Origin: Ginglymostoma cirratum
Taxonomy: Eukaryota
Direction: 5' to 3'
Assembly (NCBI GenBank): GCA_024137785.1
Contig: JAHRHZ010000217.1
Location: 12,851,094-12,915,093, forward strand
DNA: 64,000 nucleotides
The position numbers and the translations under genes are program-made. Numbering within the stretch: position 1 is the stretch's first letter; every line of letters starts with the position of its first letter. The notes beneath the pieces were generated by a model. The model was not told the DNA's origin, searched no databases, and worked only from the letters and a program-made list of their open reading frames with translations. Of this stretch, positions 44,801 through 47,800 are shown in pieces.

Positions 44801-47800
44801 GTTGCGAATGCATTGTCTAAGCTCATCGTAAACATTTTCTTTGTCGAACCCCAGCTTATGTAACATGCAGATTAGAAATCGGTCTTCCTCTTCTGTATAA
44901 TTCTTCCCTTTATTTGTACCATATGCTATTCTCAATTGGTGGAAAGGTGCTTTGTAACGGCCAATCTGTTGGAGGATAGGAAATATTACTGTAGGAGAAA
45001 TAGCACAGCCAGACAGCAAACTGGTGTGTGAATTATGATACACACAACGTTTGACTATTACTTCCATTAAATGCACTTTTATTTCTAGAACTGGAACATA
45101 GCTGAACATTACCTTTGTGTCTAGTGCTTTCTTAATGCTGATCCTCCTCTGGATTCTAGCTTCTCCCCTTTCTATTTGTGCCATAATCTTCTCAATGTCT
45201 TGGAGTTCATTACATCTTTCCCAGAACACAGCTAGAAGAAACAGTAGCCAGTAGAGAATCTCCAACAAGAGCAATCCATAATACAAGTGGTGCAGGTGAT
45301 AAGAACAATCAGAACAAAACAACAGGAGAATGGATACTTTGCAAAACAAGGTTGTAATCAGAAAAAGGCAGACATAAACTTTGAAATAAAGGCTGAAAAT
45401 CTTACCAGAATATTCAATCACTTCTTCTGGAATTTTCCCCTCTACTTCACGGGCAATGTTTTCAATGTCATCACGACCCCACTTCTCATTTGCTTTGATG
45501 AACTGATTAAAATCTCTTTTTGTCCAGCTGGTAAATCCCTGTCAAACATTACATTTGCTGTCAAATAGACACACAACTACACGAGACAGCAACAAGCAAC
45601 AGAAGATGGCAGGAAACTGCAGATTCTGCACAACCAAGTAATGGGGCACATAGTTAGAGCTGGTTATACATTTTTTAAATGTCAACATTTTTGTGTTTGA
45701 TATAAAAATTGCATTTCTGAAACACTGGTGCCCTCTAGGTATCCAAGGAGAGTTTCAGGAAATTTGAGAGAAATTATTTAAATAATATGATCTATTTTAC
45801 TGATATTAACTAAACAATGAATACTAGCAAGATACCAGAAGAACTCCTCTTTCTCCTTAAATACTGCCACGGGATCACTGGCTTCTGACAGGGCAGATGA
45901 AAAATCTATTTAATATCTTATCCACAAAATAGCAGCTCCAACAAACATAGGAGCCTGGATTCTGCACTCAAGCAAAGTTGACTCAGGAGCAGAAGTGCAC
46001 CAAGGATAACTTCCTTCCATAACGAAAAAGGGTCAAATTCTTCCGTTGACAATTAAACAGAATTGAAAGTTAGAGCTGAATATACATACAAATATTATTG
46101 TCACAATGGTCATGTACTAAAACATTAACTTGCAAAAACTTCCAGGGAAGAAATATCAGAATCTTAACATGTAATATATAACCACTGCTTTGGAGATTCA
46201 CCAAAACAGGAAACCGTTAACTTCAACTGCAGTGAAGCCTTCACTTTCATAAAAAAAACAAGTAAAATGATCAAAGATACTAATGACTTCTAACAAAAGC
46301 CAAACTGACCTGAAATATTAACTTATTTTTCTCACCGATACTGTCAGACGATTTGCATCGTTTTTAGTTTGTTTTTTTTTGTATCTAATATATTTGATTT
46401 GATTGAAGTAAATAATACCATGTTTACCAAGGGTGTGTTAATATCACAGAATGTACAGCACAGAAATAGGTCATTCCAACCCTTCTCCACCATAATAACA
46501 ACCTATTACTTCTTTCTTCCACATTGGCTCATCTTACCTAAACACATTAGCACCAGAACTGCTGACAACAAGGTGTAGAGCTGGATGAACACAGCAGGCC
46601 AAGCAGCATCAGAGGAGCAGGAAAGCTGACGTTTCCGGTCTAGACCCTTCTTCAGAAGTGCTCGGGTCTAGACCCAAAACGTCAGCTCTCCTGCTCCTGA
46701 TGCTGCTTGGCCTGCTGTGTTCATCCAGCTCTAAACCTTGTTGTCNNNNNNNNNNNNNNNNNNNNNNNNNNNNNNNNNNNNNNNNNNNNNNNNNNNNNNN
46801 NNNNNNNNNNNNNNNNNNNNNNNNNNNNNNNNNNNNNNNNNNNNNNNNNNNNNNNNNNNNNNNNNNNNNNNNNNNNNNNNNNNNNNNNNNNNNNNNNNNN
46901 NNNNNNNNNNNNNNNNNNNNNNNNNNNNNNNNNNNNNNNNNNNNNNNNNNNNNNNNNNNNNNNNNNNNNNNNNNNNNNNNNNNNNNNNNNNNNNNNNNNN
47001 NNNNNNNNNNNNNNNNNNNNNNNNNNNNNNNNNNNNNNNNNNNNNNNNNNNNNNNNNNNNNNNNNNNNNNNNNNNNNNNNNNNNNNNNNNNNNNNNNNNN
47101 NNNNNNNNNNNNNNNNNNNNNNNNNNNNNNNNNNNNNNNNNNNNNCTGATGCTGCTTGGCCTGCTGTGTTCATCCAGCTCTAAACCTTGTTGTCTCAGAT
47201 TCTCCAGCACTGGCAGTTTCTACTATCTCAGTACCAGAACTGCTCCTGTGGTACAGTGCCACATCCTAACCATGGGACAAATAAAAGTGCTTCTGTGGTT
47301 GCTGACTTGCTCGTCGAGCTGGTAAGTTTGTTCACAAACATTTCATCACCATGCTAAGTAACATCATCAGTGCGGCTCTGATGAAATGTCAGTGTTCTGT
47401 CCTGCTTGCTTTTTGTGTGTCTTGGTTTGTTGGAGTAGGTGGCATCACTTCTGGAATTGATGCCTCCAACTCCATCAAACCAAGACACACAAACAGCAAG
47501 CGGGACAGAACACGATGCTTCACCGGAGGCACACTGATGATGTTATCTAGCATAGTGACAAAACGTTTGTGAACAAACTTACCAGCTGGATAAGCAAGTC
47601 AACAACCCAAACTACAAATCTTCTGAAAAACCTCAAAGTGCTTCTTCTGAAGTCTCTACTAGAATTAACATGTCTCGGTTATGGCCTCTCCCAAAATCAA
47701 GTCCATTTTAATAAAACCCTCTCAGAATCTGATAGGCTTCTATCATGTCATTTTCAGTTTTCTCTCTGATTAAAGAAAACAAGCTCTAAACCTTTTCAAT

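Follow-up and report, generated by a model that had tools for sequence, protein, structure and literature searches.

An ISWI gene of Ginglymostoma cirratum, with human SMARCA5 as its best match, contains two minimal hammerhead motifs, here called A and B, in one of its introns. They lie on the minus strand, which is the pre-mRNA strand of this gene. Very probably, they are the inverted arms of two fold-back insertions, likely the ends of Penelope-like elements (PLEs) from two different families, and the prediction is that they leave the host RNA uncut. The original prediction had placed both motifs on this strand, and both were found there in the window, the whole 64-kb stretch of DNA that was analysed (Table 1).

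Table 1. Positions of the motifs, the insertions carrying them and the assembly gap in the window
Feature	Position	Strand	Remark
Motif A, minimal hammerhead, inverted arm	47333..47374	minus	predicted cut after 47337
Motif B, minimal hammerhead, inverted arm	46624..46657	minus	predicted cut after 46628
Insertion A, 340 bp, putative Penelope/Poseidon-type end	47295..47634	plus	palindrome, tail and target site duplication (TSD)
Hammerhead copy, element-sense arm of A	47534..47567	plus	A replaces G12 at 47560
Left TSD of insertion A	47284..47294	plus	11/11 identical to 47635-47645
Right TSD of insertion A	47635..47645	plus	11 bp
Insertion B, putative Neptune-type end	46564..47229	plus	217 bp in the case of a false gap
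Truncated hammerhead copy, element-sense arm of B	46664..46683	plus	without CUGA box; A replaces G12 at 46676
Left TSD of insertion B	46549..46563	plus	14/15 identical to 47230-47244
Right TSD of insertion B	47230..47244	plus	15 bp, one mismatch to left copy
Assembly gap of 400 N	46746..47145		identical 49-mer on both sides (46697-46745 = 47146-47194)

The boxes CUGANGA and GAAA are present in both minus-strand motifs, with U16.1 and H17. Motif A consists of CGCA (47374-47371), CUGAUGA (47370-47364), GAAA from 47344 and UGUG (47336-47333), with C3 at 47370, G12 at 47344 and a U as residue 17 at 47337. Stem I has 4 bp and stem II 5-6 bp, exactly as had been claimed; the deviations are G10.1·U11.1, U15.2 and U17. 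Motif B has CUGAAGA at 46655-46649 and GAAA from 46635, with C3 at 46655, G12 at 46635 and C17 at 46628. Its stem II of 3 bp is closed by a G10.1·G11.1 mismatch and its stem I has 2 bp. The loopless palindrome at 15.2-16.2 is ACGU in motif B and AUGU in motif A, where it pairs with itself through wobbles. A pattern with the full core and at least four stem II pairs was matched three times in the 64-kb window, and two of these matches are A and B. The Rfam scan of 44000-50000 (E≤10) gave 15 matches, none of them to a hammerhead family; the miRNA matches in this region were dismissed, as they were below the gathering scores and reflect hairpins. A short stem I is usual in family B, with 2-3 bp in 12 of the 12 copies checked, and this family may therefore depend on contacts beyond those modelled.

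Each motif is embedded in an insertion that consists of a palindrome, a tail at one end and flanking TSDs. In insertion A, the inverted arm (47297-47451) and the element-sense arm (47454-47607) align over 154 columns with 23 mismatches and are followed by a tail of about 27 nt. The arms of insertion B (46564-46647 inverted, 46664-46745 element-sense) align over 82 columns with 4 mismatches, and a 35-nt tail lies at 47195-47229. The insertions are separated by 65 nt, blastn of one against the other found no common sequence, and no open reading frame remains in either. In the available text of two studies, PLEs with an endonuclease (EN+) leave a footprint in which a 5'-truncated copy is accompanied by an inverted one next to it, a tail of 30-40 bp and a short TSD (PMC8557442, PMC3846280). 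Insertions A and B show this footprint, with the inverted 5'-truncated copy, the one-sided tail and the TSD. Contigs of a relative (X4) that differs by 3-4% run 34 nt into the left end of insertion B and through the right arm of insertion A. Since these junctions are common to both, the two insertions are likely older than the split from this relative.

The assembly gap inside insertion B is very probably false, a case that had been considered before and that is now supported by the flanking 49-mer, the TSD and the family layout. When the gap is collapsed, a palindrome with the 35-nt tail results, in the same layout as the family copies L003, L008 and L009. Among the pieces examined, no contig bridged 46746-47145. 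With the gap closed, the distance between the cut sites of A and B shrinks from 709 to 260 nt.

The Penelope-like origin of the motifs and their assignment to two different families, both proposed earlier, are supported by the family copies, the TSDs, the tails and the reverse transcriptase (RT) and GIY-YIG frames of longer relatives. In the genome, family A has 5,486 first-look candidates and at least 1,514 exact-pattern matches, and family B has 2,554 and at least 2,467, respectively, with no control match for either. The relative L045 carries an RT-like frame and then a frame with a cysteine cluster and a GIY-YIG domain that runs directly into the B end (Pfam E 0.0015 and 0.0011, below cut-off). 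The A end directly follows a GIY-YIG-like frame in L047 and L052 (Pfam E 0.022, also below cut-off), and in L055 an A-related frame has a score of 0.96 to animal HTH_animal/GIY-YIG clusters. Pfam matches to RT or GIY-YIG were obtained with 4 of the 10 frames, all weak and below cut-off (E 0.001-0.04). Since the coding sense of the longer relatives matches the plus strand of the window, the motifs on the minus strand are the inverted duplicates. By eye, L045 has a cysteine cluster before the nuclease, and none is visible in L047 or L055. A linker resembling a Zn-finger lies before the GIY-YIG domain in Neptune, and not in Penelope/Poseidon, according to the accessible part of PMC8557442. Family B is a candidate Neptune-type end and family A a candidate Penelope/Poseidon-type end. 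A third hammerhead-bearing family is present in the window as stubs at 4668-4740, 12122-12188, 26714-26780, 43140-43287 and 59775-59849. One copy, at 43140-43287, forms a palindrome; another, at 59846, carries the full core on the minus strand. Further B-related stubs are found at 15987-16064 and 25995-26037.

A pattern that covers both motifs was matched 123,762 times in the genome (61,477 and 62,285 on the two strands), compared to 49 matches (26 and 23) of the reversed control. We conclude that A and B are not chance strings. The route known from the literature probably accounts for their arrangement: 5'-truncated reverse transcription from the 3' end of the element, together with an inverted copy, would result in a palindrome with a short tail and a TSD. 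Such a palindrome bears a hammerhead copy on both strands, and one of them always faces the host transcript. The sense-strand orientation of A and B thus needs no explanation of its own.

Both copies have deteriorated at the base of stem II. The original prediction had already cautioned that G10.1-C11.1 is imperfect in both motifs and that stem I of B is weak, and this is borne out by the G·U in A and the G·G in B. The G10.1-C11.1 pair is kept by the families and is absent from these two copies; C11.1 together with ACGU is retained in 89,627 of the 123,762 genomic motifs, and neither A (U11.1) nor B (G11.1) has the C. The G11.1 variant of motif B occurs in 44 genomic copies versus 2,467, which rules it out as a subfamily trait. 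The CpG formed by C11.1 and G12 is lost in all four copies, on both strands of A and of B, and CpG-type sites make up 11 of the 23 arm mismatches in A and 1 of the 4 in B. This loss of the CpG probably reflects neutral decay. Changes at 10.1-11.1 carry a kinetic penalty. No rate for such changes is given in the available part of PMC544870, and G10.1-C11.1 is described as highly conserved in minimal hammerheads in the portion of PMC4209133 at hand.

In both long hairpins, the motif belongs to the arm that is transcribed second, which supports the earlier caution that each motif may be sequestered once transcribed. The folding results are equilibrium predictions. They gave -228 kcal/mol for the hairpin of A and -163 kcal/mol for that of B, a stem II probability of 0.0 and an unpaired probability of at most 0.003 for the cut-site bases within the elements. 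Forcing the hammerhead fold is predicted to cost 51.8 (A) and 32.5 (B) kcal/mol, and a cost is likewise predicted for nascent truncations. For the bare motif A with its 4-bp stem I the predicted cost is only 0.7 kcal/mol, so the block arises from the context. In the pre-mRNA, the complementary arm is made first and is predicted to pair with the motif as soon as this is transcribed. As far as the available texts go, a single minimal motif of S. mansoni showed no cleavage and dimers were weak (PMC4209133); the anole Poseidon motif cleaved only with its element protein, and RNA-seq gave no ends at its cut site (PMC11167929). Dimer cleavage was addressed by Lunse et al., as covered in the accessible part of the review PMC6765202.

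Motif A might sometimes be cut in trans, via a transcript of the same family or an element-encoded protein. We regard this as very unlikely, although all core residues and the 4-bp stem I are kept, the hammerhead of the anole Poseidon element works with the help of a protein (PMC11167929, in the text available) and reads of the repeat families, mostly from other loci, are found in poly(A) RNA. The cut site is paired to more than 99% in the predicted fold, a stem III between two A copies would have two wobbles, and the family-A frames are mostly broken among those seen. In the nearby sequence of the window, no same-strand partner of the same family was found in tandem with either motif. Just as improbable is that the ribozymes are dead and the hairpins matter as double-stranded RNA, for editing, small RNAs or the rate of splicing. 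The length and low mismatch number of the arms and the stability of their folds would suit such a role. Against it, palindromes of this sort are common in the genome, and the repeat reads are swamped by other copies, with nothing that is specific for the locus.

The original prediction had suggested that A and B could complement each other to cut the intron or excise a small RNA. This is not supported. In a double hammerhead, stem III connects the GAAA side of one copy with the cut site of the other, and the geometry of the junction then requires each stem I to combine the 5' strand of one copy with the 3' strand of the other. Stem III can pair between the families, through 3 Watson-Crick pairs plus 1 wobble, and the motifs are on the same strand, with 260 nt between the cut sites should the gap be false. 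Both cross-family stems I are mismatched from their first position, at the cut site. For A with B, an A·A at the cut site is followed by C-G, G-C and then mismatches; for B with A, a U·U is followed by one wobble and then mismatches. The cross-family dimer was rejected on stem I, which reaches at most 2 contiguous pairs, and both hairpins would have to be opened as well, at about 84 kcal/mol summed. Nor is the pair special in this genome. The covering pattern is matched once per 70 kb on each strand. If the matches were placed at random, about 467 neighbours on the same strand would be expected within 266 nt and 1,250 within 715 nt, and among the matches listed (100 places) there were 5 same-strand neighbours, 245-570 nt apart. 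With hundreds of such neighbours expected by chance, the pair is unremarkable. A retrozyme is made of tandem direct repeats from a single family. Therefore, the proposal of a retrozyme-like excision unit does not hold either: A and B come from two unrelated insertions 65 nt apart, each with its own TSDs and without tandem direct repeats. That these two motifs act as one ribozyme in the pre-mRNA, cutting the intron or releasing a 260-nt RNA, is in our view extremely improbable.

The host intron extends from 45538 to 47947 on the minus strand with GT..AG borders. It is positioned at residue 840 of human SMARCA5, and the following exons, of which four are visible downstream, encode a sequence nearly identical to the human protein from there on. 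The human SMARCA5 gene has a 24-exon layout. The joint 45537/47948 was seen in all three runs with spliced joints (X24, X1 and X2), and in the DNA-like run X4 the intron was not skipped. Both hairpins are thus removed along with the spliced-out intron. In the poly(A) run X24, 7 reads were found on this joint versus 20-31 on the four neighbouring joints, which would favour cutting by the cross-family dimer. X1 showed a slight dip (210 versus 230-296 on the neighbours) and X2 no dip, and for the low count in X24 we cannot offer an explanation beyond small numbers or mapping. The contig depth of the intron changed inconsistently across the cut sites, from 18 to 10.9 in X1 and from 7.3 to 16.7 in X2, and this lack of a consistent step speaks against the cross-family dimer. 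No pile-up of read ends was observed at the cut sites in the poly(A) library, a result that has no power at a unique intron depth of about 0-4. Reads over both repeats are swamped by other genomic copies, which leaves locus-specific end mapping powerless. At 46556-46709, the B-family sequence, originating from other loci, reaches a poly(A) RNA depth of about 5,600-5,700 in each direction. That a chimeric double ribozyme aided by an element protein cuts or excises intron RNA of this essential chromatin remodeller gene and lowers the splicing of this joint in some tissues has only a minute chance of being correct.

In the neighbouring region 44732-45541 on the minus strand, two consecutive introns of 174 and 147 nt are both multiples of three and free of in-frame stops, and when read through they give a 270-codon open frame. 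This frame is probably due to chance, since there was little retention in X24 and the frame is interrupted in the relative by insertions of 4 nt and 1 nt.

The properties of A and B correspond to those of minimal hammerheads in the pLTRs of metazoan PLEs (Cervera and De la Pena 2014, PMC4209133, in the text available): type I with a loopless stem III, an extra nucleotide between 9 and 10.1, a short stem I, and mostly scattered truncated copies with opposite-strand pairs 100-700 bp apart. They differ from these in that both have lost G10.1-C11.1. The genomic count of 123,762 is far above the 4,000 in the coelacanth and 9,000 in Xenopus of the same source, with descriptors that differ. Searches of the literature on sharks listed no description of these motifs; the supplements of PMC4209133, beyond its main text, may include shark elements. 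With EN+ PLE insertions, as far as the accessible texts of PMC3846280 and PMC8557442 describe them, A and B share the 5'-truncated end with an adjacent inverted copy, the short TSD, a tail at one end and assembly trouble at the palindrome. The TSDs of 11 and 15 bp are longer than the 8-10 bp of rotifer EN+ PLEs in these texts. The Anolis Poseidon element PAc (PMC11167929, in part) likewise has a pLTR hammerhead with stems I and II and a tail signature; PAc itself is intact and active, with a ribozyme aided by its protein, whereas A and B are decayed stubs. With the intronic hammerheads of amniotes (RECK and others; PMC6155905, available portion), they have in common type I, the intron and the sense strand. 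Those are described as ultraconserved across amniotes, whereas A and B are minimal motifs of high copy number that have decayed and lie within hairpins. Metazoan retrozymes (PMC7229834) are also short mobile repeats with type I hammerheads.

PLE hammerheads were already described in 2014, and A and B would be ordinary relics of retroelements that are, on the modelled folds, in all probability inert. This genome has about 124,000 such motifs, and A and B, two of the more decayed ones, would have little import by themselves. If cleavage were real, a chimeric ribozyme from two transposon families would act on a host pre-mRNA. Two rules for judging such candidates follow: a palindromic insertion automatically places a motif on the sense strand, and a common stem III palindrome is insufficient for a cross-family dimer, since the stems I must swap too. 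The large number of matches in the genome would allow their depletion in introns to be compared between the sense and the antisense orientation.
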